Made by a program: the position numbers and the translations under genes
In this document: positions 12,639-21,172 of the stretch, piece after piece
Position numbering within the stretch: position 1 is the first letter of the stretch
Layout of the letters: each line of letters opens with the position of its first letter
Assembly (NCBI GenBank): GCA_031256725.1
Contig: JAIRQE010000008.1
Location: 1-32,000 of the forward strand
Reading direction: 5' to 3'
Length of the DNA stretch: 32,000 bases
From: Propionibacteriaceae bacterium
GTDB lineage: Bacteria; Actinomycetota; Actinomycetes; Propionibacteriales; Propionibacteriaceae
The notes under the pieces: generated by a model
What the model saw: the letters and a program-made list of their open reading frames with translations, nothing else
Told to the model about the DNA's origin: nothing
Databases searched by the model: none

Positions 12639-13847
12639 ATGTCTATCGCGAAACTAGTCATCACTGCCGTCATTGTTCAAGGACTCACTCAGTCTGAAGC
12701 CGCCAGCAAGTACGGGGTCTCAAAAGGATGGGTGTCCAAACTGATGGCCCGATACAGAGCGGAAGGCGAGACTGCATTCCAGCCGAAGTCCACGCGTCCT
12801 CACACCTCACCCAACGTTACATCCGACACCACGACCACAACCATCGTCACGATCCGAACCGACCTTGTTAACAGAGGTCTCGACGCTGGACCAGAAACGA
12901 TCCGTTGGCACCTGGAACATCACCACCACATGATCGTGTCCAGAGCGACGATCGCAAGGATCCTCACCCGCGAAGGTCTCGTGGCACCCGAACCCAGGAA
13001 ACGTCCGAAAACCTCGTACACTCGTTTCGAAGCCGCTCAACCCAACGAATGCTGGCAATCCGACTTCACCCACTACAGGCTCACCCACCCAGACGGACAA
13101 CCCGGCCCCGACACCGAAATCCTCACCTGGCTCGACGACCACTCCCGCTACGCCTTATCCGTCACCGGACACATCCGAGTCACCGCACCAATCGTCTTAG
13201 CCACATTCCGTCACACGATCAGCCTCTACGCTCCACCAGCGTCCACCCTGACCGACAACGGCATGGTCTACACCACCCGATTCTCCGGTGGGAAAGGCGG
13301 ACGCACCAGCTTCGAGAAAGAACTCCAGAAACTCCACATCATCCAGAAGAACGGGCACCCCAACCACCCTCAAACCCAGGGCAAAGTCGAACGATTCCAA
13401 CAAACCCTGAAGAAATGGTTACGCGCTCAACCGCACCAGCCCGCCACACTGACCGAACTACAATCTCTTCTTATTGCTTTCACTGATGAATACAACAACC
13501 GGCGCCCGCATAAATCATTGCCCCACCACCAGACTCCCGCGACCCGATACACCACCGGGATGAAAGCCAGTCCAGCCAACAACCCACCACCCGAATCTCA
13601 CAACCGTGTCCGCTACGACAAAGTCGACACATCCGGACGAGTCACCCTCCGCCACGCTGGACAACTCCACCACATCGGCATCGGACGAACCCACACCGGA
13701 ACCCTCGTCACCATGCTCATCCAAGACCTTCAGATCACAATTATCAACACCGCCACTGGAGAAATACTGCGCGACCTCATCCTCGACCCCACCAGGGATT
13801 ACCAACCCCACACCCAAAAACAACAAACCAGCGAACCCGCAATCTGA
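12639..13847 (+). CDS. IS481-family DDE transposase (rve integrase core)
   Basis: N-terminal HTH (GLTQSEAASKYGVSKGWVSKLMARYRAEGE) and rve-type catalytic region (WQSDFT.., LDDHSRY.., LTDNGMVYT.., HPQTQGKVERF). Confidence 0.9.
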   Translation: MSIAKLVITAVIVQGLTQSEAASKYGVSKGWVSKLMARYRAEGETAFQPKSTRPHTSPNVTSDTTTTTIVTIRTDLVNRGLDAGPETIRWHLEHHHHMIVSRATIARILTREGLVAPEPRKRPKTSYTRFEAAQPNECWQSDFTHYRLTHPDGQPGPDTEILTWLDDHSRYALSVTGHIRVTAPIVLATFRHTISLYAPPASTLTDNGMVYTTRFSGGKGGRTSFEKELQKLHIIQKNGHPNHPQTQGKVERFQQTLKKWLRAQPHQPATLTELQSLLIAFTDEYNNRRPHKSLPHHQTPATRYTTGMKASPANNPPPESHNRVRYDKVDTSGRVTLRHAGQLHHIGIGRTHTGTLVTMLIQDLQITIINTATGEILRDLILDPTRDYQPHTQKQQTSEPAI

Positions 13848-15405: not shown

Positions 15406-15495
15406 AAGTTTCCTTTCCTGAAACTACGCCAGAATCATACCGGGTACGAGCATCTGGTAGCCACTTGGCCTCACGGGAACCTGTACCCTTAATCT

Positions 15496-16677
15496 ATGCA
15501 GTTAAGTCGCAAGCTAGAGCAGCAGATTGCCGTATTTGGTGAAAGTGGTTCGGGAAAGACCGTTCTGATCTCCTCGTTTTATGGTGCCACTCAAGAACCG
15601 TATTTCCTTCAGAAAAGCTTGTTTGATGTTATCGCTGATGATTTCGGACAGCGTGCTCATCTTCACCAGAATTACCTGGGGATGAAGAACTCAGCAAAGC
15701 TGCCCATGGCTACACGTTTTCGTGGCTCCTCTTATTCCTTCACAGTGAAACTGAAAGAGTTGCCGGGTGGGAAGTCGAGCAAGAAGCCACCGAAACAGTT
15801 ATTTGATGCCCTTCGACTGGTGTGGCATGACTATCCGGGGGAATGGTTCGAACAAAACCTCGTGGATCCCGAAGAAGCCCAGCACAGGGTGAATACTTTC
15901 AGATCTTTGGTGGGATCTGATGTTGCCTTGCTGCTTGTGGACGGACAAAAGTTGCTGGATAACGCCGGCGAGGAGGAAAGGTACCTCAAGTCGCTGTTCA
16001 CCAACTTCCGTAATGGCCTGCTCAGCCTCAAAGATGATCTTCTTGAAGGGGGCAAACCCCTTGTTGACTTCCCGCGTATTTGGGTACTTGCCCTATCCAA
16101 ATCGGATCTACTCCCTGATGTCGATGTGTTTCGTTTCAAGGAGCTTCTCATTGAGAAGGTTGCAGGCGAGATCGTAGAACTGCGCAATGTTCTTGCTGGA
16201 TTTGTTGACTCCAGCGATGCACTCTCAGTGGCTGAAGACTATATCTTGTTGTCATCAGCAAAGTTCAATCCAGACAAGATCGAAGTCAGTGAACGTGTGG
16301 GAGTGGCAGCAATTCTTCCTTTAGCCTCCATCCTTCCTTTTGAACGCCATCTTCGTTGGGTACAAACAAAGAAAGCGGTCGGAAAGGTCGCCGAGAGTCT
16401 TCTGAGCGTGGCTGGTATCTTCGCCACAGCAATGATCGGAGGCAAACTGAAGAGCTCCACAAAGGAGAAGAAAACAGGAAAGCTCTCAGGCCTTGTTAAA
16501 CTGGCTGGAATCGTGGATGTCGCGGTTGAAGCAGTGAAGCTTGCTGGGGAGAAACTTCGTATTCTCAATGAACAGGCCATCAGCCAGGGCGACACTCTTT
16601 CTGCTGTACTCACCCAGTTCCAACTGGATTTGGAAAAGTGTGAAGAGGACCGAGTCCTTCATAGGAGCATAGGGTGA
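15496..16677 (+). CDS. Uncharacterised P-loop GTPase (TRAFAC-like G1/G3/G4) with a C-terminal hydrophobic/amphipathic region
   Basis: G1 GESGSGKT (aa 15-22, nt 15538-15561), G3 DYPGE (aa 112-116) and G4-like SKSD (aa 201-204, nt 16096-16107). The C-terminus has two short hydrophobic segments (VGVAAILPLASILPF, LLSVAGIFATAMIGG) and a Lys-rich stretch. Confidence 0.75.
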   Translation: MQLSRKLEQQIAVFGESGSGKTVLISSFYGATQEPYFLQKSLFDVIADDFGQRAHLHQNYLGMKNSAKLPMATRFRGSSYSFTVKLKELPGGKSSKKPPKQLFDALRLVWHDYPGEWFEQNLVDPEEAQHRVNTFRSLVGSDVALLLVDGQKLLDNAGEEERYLKSLFTNFRNGLLSLKDDLLEGGKPLVDFPRIWVLALSKSDLLPDVDVFRFKELLIEKVAGEIVELRNVLAGFVDSSDALSVAEDYILLSSAKFNPDKIEVSERVGVAAILPLASILPFERHLRWVQTKKAVGKVAESLLSVAGIFATAMIGGKLKSSTKEKKTGKLSGLVKLAGIVDVAVEAVKLAGEKLRILNEQAISQGDTLSAVLTQFQLDLEKCEEDRVLHRSIG

Positions 16678-17024
16678 AACTCATATGGGCCACCCGGGGA
16701 AGAACCTGGGGATTTCGGTTCCTGAAAAAGGCAGGATTCGCTGATCCTCTGCCTGAGTACGAGAAAGCCTTCTGTCACATTGAGGAGGAACCGGAGATCT
16801 GGCGTCGACTCGGCAGGGTTGTCGCTGTTCGTTTTTCTGACCCTGAGGCCCGGCAAGATCAGTCGGGCAGAGTCATCCCCCATGAGTTTGTTCTCTATGG
16901 CGTTCTGGGAACACAAGTGAACTCAGTCAGTGACGCATTAACACTGGTATGGCCCTTGGTAAGCGACGAATTTGATCGGATCTGGGATCAACAAGATCCC
17001 CTCTCAAACCGTGAATCAGACTAG
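16674..17024 (+). CDS. Hypothetical 116-aa protein, translationally coupled to the GTPase
   Basis: The GTG start overlaps the upstream TGA (GTGA), and AGGAG sits 6 nt upstream. I recognise no family for it (MKLIWATRGRTWGFRFL...). Confidence 0.55.
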   Translation: MKLIWATRGRTWGFRFLKKAGFADPLPEYEKAFCHIEEEPEIWRRLGRVVAVRFSDPEARQDQSGRVIPHEFVLYGVLGTQVNSVSDALTLVWPLVSDEFDRIWDQQDPLSNRESD

Positions 17025-17068: not shown

Positions 17069-17770
17069 ATGGATTCACCGTATTCAAATACCCAAGGTCC
17101 CAGAAGATCTGCTCCAGGCCCGCAAACTCACCATGCGAGCCCTCCTCGTCGTGCCTATACTCCAGACGAAACCGAACCGATCATGGCTGGGTACACCTAC
17201 ACACCAGGTAACACCTCAGTACCCATGGACCCTGCTTCAGCCAGCCCGCTTGTACCCACCCTTGCGCCTGGTGACTCCATCACGAACTACAAACCCCACA
17301 ACAGCACTGGGTGGATCATCACTTTAGTCGTACTCCTGGTTGCTGGCATCGGGGGAATGATTCTTGTGAACAATCTTCCCCAACCCGAGGTCATAGTTAC
17401 TGAGACTCCTCCACCACCTACGAGCTATACCACTGAATCTCGTACCGGTGGGATGGCTTTCGCGGAGAAAGATCTGACCGGATATTGGCGGATCACTGAT
17501 ACCAAATGGGGCACGAGTGGTGTCACCCTCACCGTGGAGGTGATGGTTGACACAGGCATTCTCTTCTATGACTTCTACGCTTACGCTGTTGATGACCTCA
17601 CGCAATTGGAGCAGATCCTGACCTCCCCCACCGACCTTATTCCTGGGTTTGTTGGCCCTGGGGAATCCATCACGGGTACAGTCACCTTTGAAACATCCCG
17701 TCAGTCTCTCCAACTCATCATGGTCAGTCGTGGACAAACACAATTATCAGCTTTACTGGTGGATGAGTGA
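17069..17770 (+). CDS. Pro-rich N-terminus, single TM, DUF4352-like extracytoplasmic domain protein
   Basis: TM helix WIITLVVLLVAGIGGMILV followed by a beta-rich C-domain (..VTLTVEVMVDTG..PGESITGTVTFE..). I prefer the ATG at 17069; the track uses an alternative start at 17060. Confidence 0.65.
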   Translation: MDSPYSNTQGPRRSAPGPQTHHASPPRRAYTPDETEPIMAGYTYTPGNTSVPMDPASASPLVPTLAPGDSITNYKPHNSTGWIITLVVLLVAGIGGMILVNNLPQPEVIVTETPPPPTSYTTESRTGGMAFAEKDLTGYWRITDTKWGTSGVTLTVEVMVDTGILFYDFYAYAVDDLTQLEQILTSPTDLIPGFVGPGESITGTVTFETSRQSLQLIMVSRGQTQLSALLVDE

Positions 17771-19582: not shown

Positions 19583-21172
19583 CTACAGACCGATGTCGAA
19601 AGAAATCACGGAGTTCGACATGGATCCGACTCTGAAATGGGAACCTTGGGGAGCCTCAACGGGGACCTGGTAGACGAAGATACCTTGGACACTATTCCCT
19701 GGTTGAATGGTGAGAACCCAGAAGGTGTTCTTTGTACCATCAGGCGCAGAAATGGCCATGGTTCCATTGGGGTTCGGTCGATAGGCGACACCATCGCCTG
19801 CAGCCAAGATCGAGTCAGAGACCACATGTACATAGGTCTGCGAGCCAGAGAAACTCATTTCAATGGGTACTGCAACAAAAACCATTCCAGGCGAAGGTGT
19901 CGTTGACCCAATCTCGGTGAGTACCTCTGCTTGATCAAGGACAGTGAAGGTCACCAATCCGGATTCGACCTTCATCGACACCGGCATACCAATGGGTACT
20001 AATGTTCCTGTTGGTGGCCTAGATTCTGGAGGCGGTTGATTCAAAGGCGACTCCACTGTGGAGGTACCACCAGGATTTGTTGACCCTGATACGGAAGAAC
20101 CAGTACCACTACTGCCTGGAGTACCTGAGGTGAGCATCCATGGCACCCCTCTGATGCCCACAAGAATTCCAGCAGCCACAGCTACAAGAATGGCGACAAT
20201 AAAGAGTATTACCAATCCTGGACTTACCTTACGCTGAGGTTTCTTCTTGTGCTGAGACTTCTTCTTGGGTTGTACAGGGGGGTGGGGAACAGAAGTCCGG
20301 TGCTCGCCCACTGGAGGTATAGGTTCAGTAAGCATAGGCCAGGCTGGCAGTGGTACTTGCTTAGGTTCTTCCTGAGGCAGATCCGCCATAATTCCAGGAG
20401 GCCAGGCAGGTACAGTTTCAGGCGGCTGCAAAGGTTGATGGGACAGCAATTCGGGATATGACATCGGGATGGGGGAAGTAATCTCAACTGGTAATGGTTC
20501 TGGAATTACTGACTCAGATGTCTCGGGAGCTGGTGACTGCGGCGTCACTCCTGGTACTGGAGTGGGCATCCATATCGGTGGCTGGTACTGAGTTTCCAGT
20601 GCGGGAGACTGAGGCTCAAGGAGTTGAGGTGTCGAGGGCGGTACTGGCGCAGACTCCAAAGTTGGCACAGACTCTACAGTTACTGGATCTTGAGGCTGAA
20701 GTACCACTGGGGGTACTGTCGCTGTCTCAGAAGTTGCGGGTGCCTGAGGTGGCTGCGGCATGGACTCAGGTTGAAGAGGCTCAAGCGGAACTGAAGGTAC
20801 CGATGTTTGAAGAAACTCGGCTGGAACTGAAGATTCTAGTGGTTGTGTATAGTCGGGGACCTGAGGAGGCTCAGGTGGTACTTCTGGACGCGGGCCGTAG
20901 TAACCAGCGTACTGACCCTCATTCAGATGCTGACCATCCGGCGGATACGGCCCAGGCGCACTGAGTCCTGGATAGGGGCTCGAACCAAAATCGGGTAAAG
21001 GCTCAGTCTGAATCTTGTGGGATTCCGCTGAAGACTCTGGTTCAAGGCGCGGATCAATCTCCTCCTTGTCTGGAGGAACTGTACCTAATGTAACCCATGC
21101 CTCCACTGTCTGGGGTCCATTTACAGGACTCTCGCTCACAAGACTAATCGTACCCCTGAAGATCGAAAACAA
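19583..21172 (-). CDS. Large Pro-rich, single-TM protein with a DUF4352-like C-terminal domain
   Basis: About 300 aa of low-complexity P/E/Q/V-rich sequence, a basic stretch (KKKSQHKKKPQRK), the TM helix LVILFIVAILVAVAAGILVGI, and a beta-rich C-domain. Confidence 0.7.
   Translation of the reverse strand: MFSIFRGTISLVSESPVNGPQTVEAWVTLGTVPPDKEEIDPRLEPESSAESHKIQTEPLPDFGSSPYPGLSAPGPYPPDGQHLNEGQYAGYYGPRPEVPPEPPQVPDYTQPLESSVPAEFLQTSVPSVPLEPLQPESMPQPPQAPATSETATVPPVVLQPQDPVTVESVPTLESAPVPPSTPQLLEPQSPALETQYQPPIWMPTPVPGVTPQSPAPETSESVIPEPLPVEITSPIPMSYPELLSHQPLQPPETVPAWPPGIMADLPQEEPKQVPLPAWPMLTEPIPPVGEHRTSVPHPPVQPKKKSQHKKKPQRKVSPGLVILFIVAILVAVAAGILVGIRGVPWMLTSGTPGSSGTGSSVSGSTNPGGTSTVESPLNQPPPESRPPTGTLVPIGMPVSMKVESGLVTFTVLDQAEVLTEIGSTTPSPGMVFVAVPIEMSFSGSQTYVHVVSDSILAAGDGVAYRPNPNGTMAISAPDGTKNTFWVLTIQPGNSVQGIFVYQVPVEAPQGSHFRVGSMSNSVISFDIGL

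Follow-up and report, generated by a model that had tools for sequence, protein, structure and literature searches.

A horizontally mobile GTPase-partner gene pair of Actinomycetota as a candidate anti-phage conflict module

Introduction

The closest described relatives of the locus reported here are the DO-GTPases, a TRAFAC family with a glutamate in the Walker B motif (Kaur, Burroughs, Iyer, Aravind 2020, eLife, PMC7159879). The locus is a pair of overlapping genes that encode a 393 amino acid P-loop GTPase and a 116 amino acid partner. It lies in a 32,000 nucleotide stretch of DNA from a Propionibacteriaceae metagenome-assembled genome (assembly GCA_031256725.1, contig JAIRQE010000008.1, positions 1 to 32,000 of the forward strand), which we refer to as the window. 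DO-GTPases were predicted to be the switch of mobile conflict systems, many of them near the membrane (PMC7159879). The defining part of these systems is a three-domain GAP1 protein (GAP1-N1/N2, -M, and -C) that is encoded downstream of the GTPase or fused to it; further parts are a GASH protein in the N1 type or an FNIII-repeat protein in the N2 type, and variable effectors (PMC7159879). N-terminal zinc ribbons or transmembrane segments and a second paralogous GTPase are frequent traits, not universal ones, and the GAP1-N2 subtype is mainly actinobacterial (PMC7159879). The literature that we searched contained no published experimental test of any DO-GTPase conflict system, and full-text searches returned no published description of the pair.

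Other points of comparison come from proteins that control small GTPases and from phage defense. Longin and Roadblock domains are classic platforms and GTPase-activating proteins (GAPs) of small GTPases. They share a five-stranded antiparallel sheet sandwiched by helices, in the order bb-a-bbb-a(a) (b, strand; a, helix). The actinobacterial conservon also combines a Roadblock protein, CvnB, with a GTPase, CvnD.

The pair resembles the GAP1-N2 systems in that its GTPase belongs to the DO-GTPase2 family, has the Walker B glutamate, and occurs in mobile, sporadic neighborhoods. As in those systems, a conserved gene that co-evolves with the GTPase lies directly downstream of it. However, the product of this gene is not GAP1 but a single 116 amino acid domain without a Pfam match. 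The top flanking Pfam families of the pair's loci do not include GAP1, FNIII, GASH, tubulin, or GrpE, and the GTPase has no N-terminal domain because its P-loop starts at residue 15. We ruled out a canonical DO-GTPase/GAP1 system, given the absence of GAP1, FNIII or GASH proteins, zinc ribbons, a second GTPase, and variable effectors.

Like the longin/Roadblock regulators (MglB-MglA, Ragulator/LAMTOR, FLCN-FNIP, and GATOR1), the pair sets a small alpha/beta domain beside a P-loop GTPase that is its presumed target, and the predicted order bb-a-bbb-a of the partner fits that of longin domains, with marginal structural scores. The GTPase differs in being a 393 amino acid DO-GTPase, not a Ras-like small GTPase. 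It also recalls the dynamin-like defense GTPases (Eleos LeoA/LeoBC and Bacillus subtilis DynA), in that its C-terminal extension is helical and it may work close to the membrane in defense islands, but it is much smaller and is without an evident stalk or paddle.

We predict, with moderate confidence, a conflict role for the pair as a self-contained and horizontally mobile unit of two genes that is built on a GTPase switch; its most likely function is anti-phage defense or abortive infection. The GTPase family is already catalogued, with a computational prediction of a conflict role. We did not find the two-gene architecture, the partner family, its membrane-anchored variants, or its phage homologues described in the literature searched.

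A coupled two-gene unit

The GTPase gene (15496..16677, + strand) begins with ATG and the partner gene (16674..17024, + strand) with GTG. The partner has its own ribosome-binding site, AGGAG, within the 3′ end of the GTPase gene (16663..16667, + strand), followed by a 6-nucleotide spacer, the GTG at 16674, and the TGA of the GTPase gene at 16675-16677, which together form a GTGA overlap. An original prediction, made from the window's sequence without database searches, had called both open reading frames and this junction, and the sequence bears it out.

That prediction also treated the pair as an obligately co-expressed module and proposed to check whether the two genes always co-occur. Homologues of both occur together in all 83 loci, with the partner directly downstream of the GTPase each time. 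A simple gene caller recovered the partner in 54 loci, and in 52 of these its start overlaps the GTPase gene by 4 nucleotides. There is no third conserved gene; the best neighbor cluster reaches 11 of 81 loci, at scattered positions. A second GTPase copy within 10 kb was found in only one of 81 loci.

The two genes have diverged together, and selection on both is purifying. The identity matrices of GTPase and partner are correlated (Mantel r = 0.65, a value reached by 0 of 999 permutations). Across 30 locus pairs, Nei-Gojobori dN/dS ranges from 0.05 to 0.23 in the GTPase and from 0.08 to 0.36 in the partner, with one near-identical pair giving a noisy value. The 116 amino acid reading frame is conserved and constrained at this level, so it is a real gene and not a chance frame, a possibility that the original prediction had left as grounds for rejecting the module.

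Pairwise identity varies little within the family, around a median of 62%; almost any two lineages, from Acidimicrobiia to Streptomyces, are 55-67% identical (omega ~0.1). This flat, star-like identity is accounted for by none of the explanations that we offer.

The GTPase

The first gene encodes a TRAFAC-type P-loop GTPase. It matches the Pfam family PF19993 (DO-GTPase2) with E = 7.1e-8 and 32.8 bits, above the gathering cutoff of 27; the match is partial, and its best stretch pairs residues 108-169 with profile positions 91-143 of 226. Nearly all of its approximately 2000 homologues have a precomputed PF19993 label, which two distant members (P0340 and P0383) do not have.

The motif set was read from the translation and is near-invariant in the family. 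An alignment of 32 GTPase sequences (A2) contains 97 invariant columns. The G1 or Walker A motif GESGSGKT (residues 15-22; 15538..15561, + strand) includes the catalytic K21, and G15, G18, S19, G20, K21, and T22 are all invariant. The G3 or Walker B motif DYPGE (residues 112-116; 15829..15843, + strand) ends in the glutamate typical of DO-GTPases. The stretch from W110 to G115 is invariant, and Glu116 is present in 28 of the 32 sequences, with Q or D in the remaining four. In the G4-like motif SKSD (residues 201-204; 16096..16107, + strand), S201, K202, and D204 are invariant. The assignment to TRAFAC-type GTPases in the original prediction therefore holds, and its view that the protein fits no known family is wrong, given the above-threshold match to DO-GTPase2.

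The C-terminal part of the protein, residues 264-393 (16285..16674, + strand), is a conserved helical region and a candidate output or membrane-proximal part. Two helices of moderate hydrophobicity and a conserved amphipathic helix make up this region, together with a variable linker rich in Lys and Gly. The hydrophobic segments are residues 264-282 and 298-316, and the Lys-rich stretch covers residues ~317-345.

Searches for more distant relatives gave little. The top Foldseek matches in the Protein Data Bank (PDB) are a bacterial dynamin pair and atlastins, which are weak (TM-score 0.26-0.30) and come from a low-confidence model. We found no Pfam or PADLOC dynamin match for the GTPase. A weak match to the YcjX-like family DUF463 is below the Pfam threshold, and PDB sequence searches returned nothing useful for either protein of the pair.

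The partner and its membrane-anchored relatives

We identified 678 partner homologues, and the partner has no Pfam domain at E ≤ 1. An alignment of 32 sequences at approximately 55% identity has 22 invariant columns, and conserved motifs include WATRGRxWGF, DPLxxY, RFxDP, GRVIPHEF, and VWP. The AlphaFold2 model is confident (pLDDT 87.7, pTM 0.82) and predicts a small alpha/beta domain in the order bb-a-bbb-aaa. When this model was searched against the PDB with Foldseek, the top matches were almost all longin or Roadblock proteins (most of the top 50), including FNIP2, Npr2/Nprl2/3, the Lst4 longin domain, LAMTOR, Sec22b, and MglB.

Residues D56, D62, R66, and H70 of the partner are conserved in distant branches. 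We considered an arginine finger in the RGR hairpin and dropped it, as R8 and R10 are not conserved in those branches.

The distant branches are represented by three GTPase members from short metagenomic contigs, with ~31-32% identity to the window copy. The gene after each of these GTPases encodes 209-242 amino acids (L089:1693-2322, L090:2106-2786, and L091:1818-2546) and overlaps the GTPase gene by 4 nucleotides in two of the three. The proteins have a partner-like N-terminal half, a middle region, and a C-terminal transmembrane anchor. The prediction of this anchor is strong for two of them and marginal for one (dGapp, the predicted free energy of membrane insertion, +1.8). The N-terminal half of one protein is clearly homologous to the partner (hhalign probability 88.8%, E = 2.5e-6). 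In another, only the N-terminal motif matches (hhalign probability 15%), and the remaining one keeps the invariant partner residues in a multiple alignment. These predicted anchors link the system to the membrane in some branches of the family at least, in line with the 2020 proposal that DO-GTPases act near the membrane. The pair on the L091 contig is adjoined by an AAA_15/AAA_21 ATPase gene and a gene for a 180 amino acid protein.

Distribution and mobility

In a scan that used one genome per species, relatives of the pair were present in approximately 306 of 185,579 species genomes (~0.16%), almost all of them Actinomycetota. The clade is compact; among 1.84 billion proteins there are only 318 representatives at E ≤ 1e-3.

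Similarity among the copies of the pair is not ordered by taxonomy. The window GTPase is closest to copies from Leucobacter, Cryobacterium, and Micromonospora (65-67% identity). The four other Propionibacteriaceae copies rank only 39th to 68th of 81, with 57-61% identity. The window's DapC provides a contrast, as its best matches are all from Propionibacteriaceae.

In the window, fdxA and dapC lie on one side of the pair, and neither gene was found near the pair at any other locus. The original prediction had called for a comparison of the fdxA-to-fadD interval among relatives. Four contigs from the nearest available relatives (DapC 73-76% identical) are syntenic on the dapC side and lack the pair at the fdxA-dapC locus, and the interval upstream of fdxA differs in each. 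We thus ruled out a conserved locus with a housekeeping role.

From this distribution, and with a GC content among the lowest in the window, the pair is horizontally mobile between Actinomycetota genomes. Its surroundings had been described as insertion-like in the original prediction. The accessory distribution and the absence of the pair at the fdxA locus of relatives agree with that description. No notable flanking direct or inverted repeats, insertion boundaries, or adjacent tRNA were found around the pair.

Three relatives (L084, L086, and L087) have a variable slot between an oligopeptide ABC transporter and fdxA. It is empty in one of them, holds genes for a helix-turn-helix (HTH) protein, a methyltransferase, and a toxin-antitoxin-like pair (a 76 amino acid protein and DUF5615) in another, and holds a gene for an IgGFc_binding/Flg_new surface protein in the remaining one. 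The window's chromosome is rearranged past fdxA and lacks the opp transporter.

Neighborhoods of the pair in other genomes

Genes for restriction, defense, and mobile elements recur beside the pair, as the original prediction expected of a defense-island context. In Agromyces, the neighbors are McrB-McrC, Dcm, Vsr, MZB, and large helicases. The Arthrobacter pair has genes for NERD, a PLD-DEAD-DUF3427 enzyme, and GmrSD directly upstream. In Mycobacterium abscessus, the pair is located in a conjugative-element region with a TraG-like coupling protein, Fic/HTH, an AAA_15/21 ATPase, a resolvase, and Mrr. The context in Micrococcus luteus is uninformative. Families that recur in the flanks include GmrSD (six proteins), Mrr, PD-(D/E)XK, RAMA, TIR, NERD, and ResIII, as well as type I restriction-modification subunits, UvrD-type helicases, SspE-like proteins, TrwC relaxase, and transposases.

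The Streptomyces pair has DUF6119 and GmrSD upstream and an HSP70-like cluster and a lanthipeptide cluster downstream. In this downstream region (L003:11997-20457 and L004:10273-18626), the four genes next to the pair lie on the opposite strand and encode an HSP70-like ATPase and three proteins without a Pfam match. They are followed by genes for a LanB-like dehydratase (Lant_dehydr_C) and a LanC-like protein of the lanthipeptide cluster. HSP70 themes have been described for DO-GTPase systems (Kaur et al., PMC7159879), and anti-phage lanthipeptides were reported in a 2024 preprint.

Phage copies of the partner domain

The partner matches a phage protein family, phrog_38171, at E = 2e-14. In the Arthrobacter phages Nightmare and Tokki (Gordonvirus), a gene located between those for terminase and portal encodes gp8, a protein of 203-204 amino acids. 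This protein combines a DUF7211 N-terminal motif with a transmembrane helix and a domain that is 41-43% identical to the partner. The predicted structures of the partner and of Nightmare gp8 superimpose with a TM-score of 0.86 and a root-mean-square deviation (rmsd) of 2.3 Å. Rhodococcus phage ReqiPepy6 encodes a more divergent copy of the domain (gp016). In the phage copies, the RFxDPxGRxDxxGRVIPHE core and the WP motif are intact and the first hairpin is altered, with W5 changed to H and W12 to R/K. Only three phage species, with four GenBank records, were found to have the domain, compared with 678 bacterial clusters. Arthrobacter is among the host genera richest in the pair.

Nightmare and Tokki encode no GTPase homologue, and no relative of the GTPase was found in 2.9 million viral contigs (IMG/VR). 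The sole GTPase match among 50,697 phage records is MT835574.1 ('UNVERIFIED: Bacteriophage sp.', 86 kb), which carries the whole pair, flanked by genes for a succinate-dehydrogenase-like (SdhA-like) flavoprotein, DUF1846, a NERD-UvrD helicase, and an Exo_endo_phos protein. We set this record aside as a bacterial fragment, as the flanks at the examined end look bacterial, and do not count it as a phage-borne pair.

The phage-encoded solo partner domains add independent support for a role of the pair in conflict between host and phage. In the simplest reading, phages may have acquired the regulator from their hosts' system and turned it into a decoy or a means of counter-defense. Like known phage antitoxin mimics and decoys, the Arthrobacter phages carry a regulator-like domain without the GTPase. 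Unlike those mimics, gp8 has the extra DUF7211 motif and a transmembrane helix, and only three phage species have the domain.

The terminase-portal interval of each of these phages contains three tandem genes (Nightmare gp8-gp10, L092:5301-7338; Tokki, L093:5270-7324; ReqiPepy6, L095:3001-4516). Every one of them opens with an invariant VDxFLxHYGVKGMKWG (Pfam DUF7211) that is followed by a differing C-terminal domain, and the whole resembles a polymorphic cargo array. The DUF7211 N-terminal motif is present in 119 actinophage records, with hosts in Arthrobacter, Gordonia, Streptomyces, and Rhodococcus. We found no literature on DUF7211 phage arrays. Given the DUF7211 motif and the position between terminase and portal genes, the gp8-type copies may be delivered with the virion.

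Local context in the window

The flanks of the pair are as the original prediction described them. On one side are genes for a ferredoxin (Fer4) and an Aminotran_1_2 protein (named succinyldiaminopimelate transaminase by NCBI), and on the other are genes for a protein with a single transmembrane helix and an AMP-binding, FadD-like ligase. Its rough estimate that the pair is slightly AT-richer than its surroundings is also confirmed, as the pair has 50.1% GC compared with a mean of 53.9% (sd 1.5) for windows of the same size, among which it falls in the lowest 1.5%.

The 90-nucleotide intergenic region between the divergent fdxA and GTPase genes (15406..15495, + strand) is, by its position, the presumed promoter region. 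No sigma-70-like promoter or convincing terminator was found at the pair by a scan that omits actinobacterial promoter types and is thus uninformative for an actinobacterium.

An IS481-family transposase gene (Pfam rve, rve_3, and LZ_Tnp_IS481; 12639-13847, + strand) lies between dapC and a gene for a 610 amino acid surface protein, ~1.6 kb from the pair. It is a lineage-specific insertion, because dapC and the surface-protein gene adjoin in relatives. Two genes for proline-rich single-pass membrane proteins flank fadD (17183-17770, + strand, and 19583-21172, - strand). The one of 529 amino acids has a weak C-terminal match to DUF4352, just under the Pfam threshold. The other, of 195/236 amino acids, is encoded directly 3′ of the pair and is outside the module, because it is not beside the pair at any other locus.

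Interpretation

The proposal that the pair is a mobile conflict module rests on the coupled unit, the DO-GTPase2 family with its predicted conflict role, the mobility of the pair, the defense genes beside it, the membrane-anchored partner variants, the fold of the partner, and the partner copies in phages. To this extent the original prediction stands; its simple membrane insertion and its unplaceable GTPase do not. The single mechanistic steps of such a role are considerably less certain than the role as a whole. The partner would bind the GTPase and hold or set its nucleotide state, and might do so as a GAP, as a nucleotide-dissociation inhibitor (GDI), or in the manner of an antitoxin. A sign of infection in or close to the membrane would disturb this pairing, and the GTP-locked GTPase would self-associate. 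Its conserved C-terminal helical region could then act on the membrane or on another essential target and stop the infection. Phage gp8-type copies of the partner would be surrogate regulators that keep the GTPase off.

Several observations weigh against this proposal or parts of it. Neither protein has a match in PADLOC v2.0.0 at E ≤ 1, NCBIfam returned sub-threshold P-loop noise only and no model that matches either protein, and the pair contains no recognizable effector domain. The AlphaFold2 model of the GTPase has a pLDDT of 57.7 overall and is unreliable in residues 294-393, where the score is below 50. We ruled out a classical transmembrane anchor in the C-terminus, which the original prediction had expected to insert into the membrane. 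The best 19-residue windows there have a Kyte-Doolittle hydropathy (KD) of 1.3-1.6 and a dGapp of +3.7 to +9 kcal/mol; both segments thus score below transmembrane controls from the same run (KD 1.5-2.8, dGapp -3.1 to +1.8). Peripheral or conditional association with the membrane may still occur.

The genomic context also has a weaker side. The 300 nearest flanking genes are very heterogeneous, with 130 Pfam families in one set of 150 proteins and 143 in the other. The recurring defense families are mixed with ordinary metabolic genes, and many loci have only metabolic neighbors. A BLAST search with a limited set of 16 defense reference proteins found homologues in at least 13 of 79 loci. The association with defense genes is recurrent, and as a count of neighbors it is suggestive. 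Very strong, star-like conservation is unusual for fast-evolving immune sensors, and the phage domain might serve the phage's own purposes.

The same caution applies to the fold of the partner. Its resemblance to longin and Roadblock domains is weak (best E = 3.5e-3, TM-score 0.37-0.43, rmsd 5-8 Å). The Pfam Robl_LC7 and Longin models do not match the partner at E ≤ 1, and its profile found only a chance-level kinesin (E = 0.7) among PDB sequences. As the structural scores are marginal and the sequence profiles are empty, we keep a longin/Roadblock-like regulator of the GTPase as a weak lead from the predicted structure. It is the best mechanistic lead that we have, and not a family assignment.

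One alternative is a toxin-antitoxin-like addiction module that mainly stabilizes a mobile element, in which the GTPase with its C-terminal helices is a growth-arresting toxin and the partner is the antitoxin. The tight two-gene operon with its 4-nucleotide overlap would fit, as would the position of the M. abscessus pair in a conjugative-element region beside a Fic/HTH pair and the DUF5615-type toxin-antitoxin pair in the equivalent slot upstream of fdxA in one relative; the phage copies of the partner would fit phage-encoded antitoxin mimics. However, the large protein comes first and the small one second, the partner is a well-folded 116 amino acid domain and not a typical labile antitoxin, and most loci are chromosomal without an obvious element. 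We consider addiction an unlikely explanation, although it overlaps with abortive-infection defense and is not cleanly separable from it.

The pair could also be a GTPase-regulator module for membrane or envelope stress or for developmental signaling, comparable to the conservon or to YcjX-YcjF of Escherichia coli, with no part in conflict. The best fold matches of the partner are GTPase regulators (MglB, LAMTOR, and longin-domain GAPs), purifying conservation is very strong and star-like in both genes, a DO-GTPase has been noted beside psp envelope-stress operons, and the sub-threshold DUF463 match and the metabolic neighbors at many loci point the same way. This role is nevertheless improbable, given that the pair is sporadic (~0.16% of species genomes), does not follow taxonomy, and is absent from the syntenic locus of relatives, that restriction systems and mobile elements are repeatedly adjacent to it, and that phages carry homologues of the partner, which the Pfam Roadblock and longin models fail to match.

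An origin of the partner domain as a phage module, with the bacterial pair a domesticated or prophage-remnant gene set that serves, for example, in superinfection exclusion, would agree with the PHROG match and with the polymorphic DUF7211 array between terminase and portal genes, but it is very unlikely, as no relative of the GTPase was found in the viral contigs searched, its sole match in phage records lies between bacterial-looking flanks, three phage species stand against 678 bacterial partner clusters, and phage structural genes occur in 0 of 6 annotated bacterial contexts.

Mobile conflict, and defense against phages in particular, thus remains the role that we favor for the pair. A more specific version, which we put forward only tentatively and regard as rather doubtful in its entirety, is a minimal immune switch in which a longin/Roadblock-like protein controls a DO-type GTPase at the membrane and actinophages respond with membrane-anchored copies of the regulator.

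Significance

Judged by sequence comparison, the pair is a credible anti-phage candidate from Actinomycetota, a phylum that is under-sampled for defense systems. If it does defend against phages, no other of the predicted DO-GTPase conflict systems would be as simple, and the pair would therefore be the easiest entry to how such switches sense infection and kill or protect the cell. The solo partner copies of Nightmare and Tokki lend themselves to a direct genetic test against the host system. If gp8 acts in counter-defense, a protein of the widespread DUF7211 phage arrays would have a function assigned for the first time, and membrane-anchored copies of a regulator would be a new class of anti-defense protein. 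The minimal switch proposed above, if true, would mean that prokaryotic immunity employs the GTPase-longin logic by which Rag, FLCN, and GATOR signaling works in eukaryotes. A longin/Roadblock-like regulator of an immune GTPase, if confirmed, would link bacterial immunity to the logic of eukaryotic membrane signaling.

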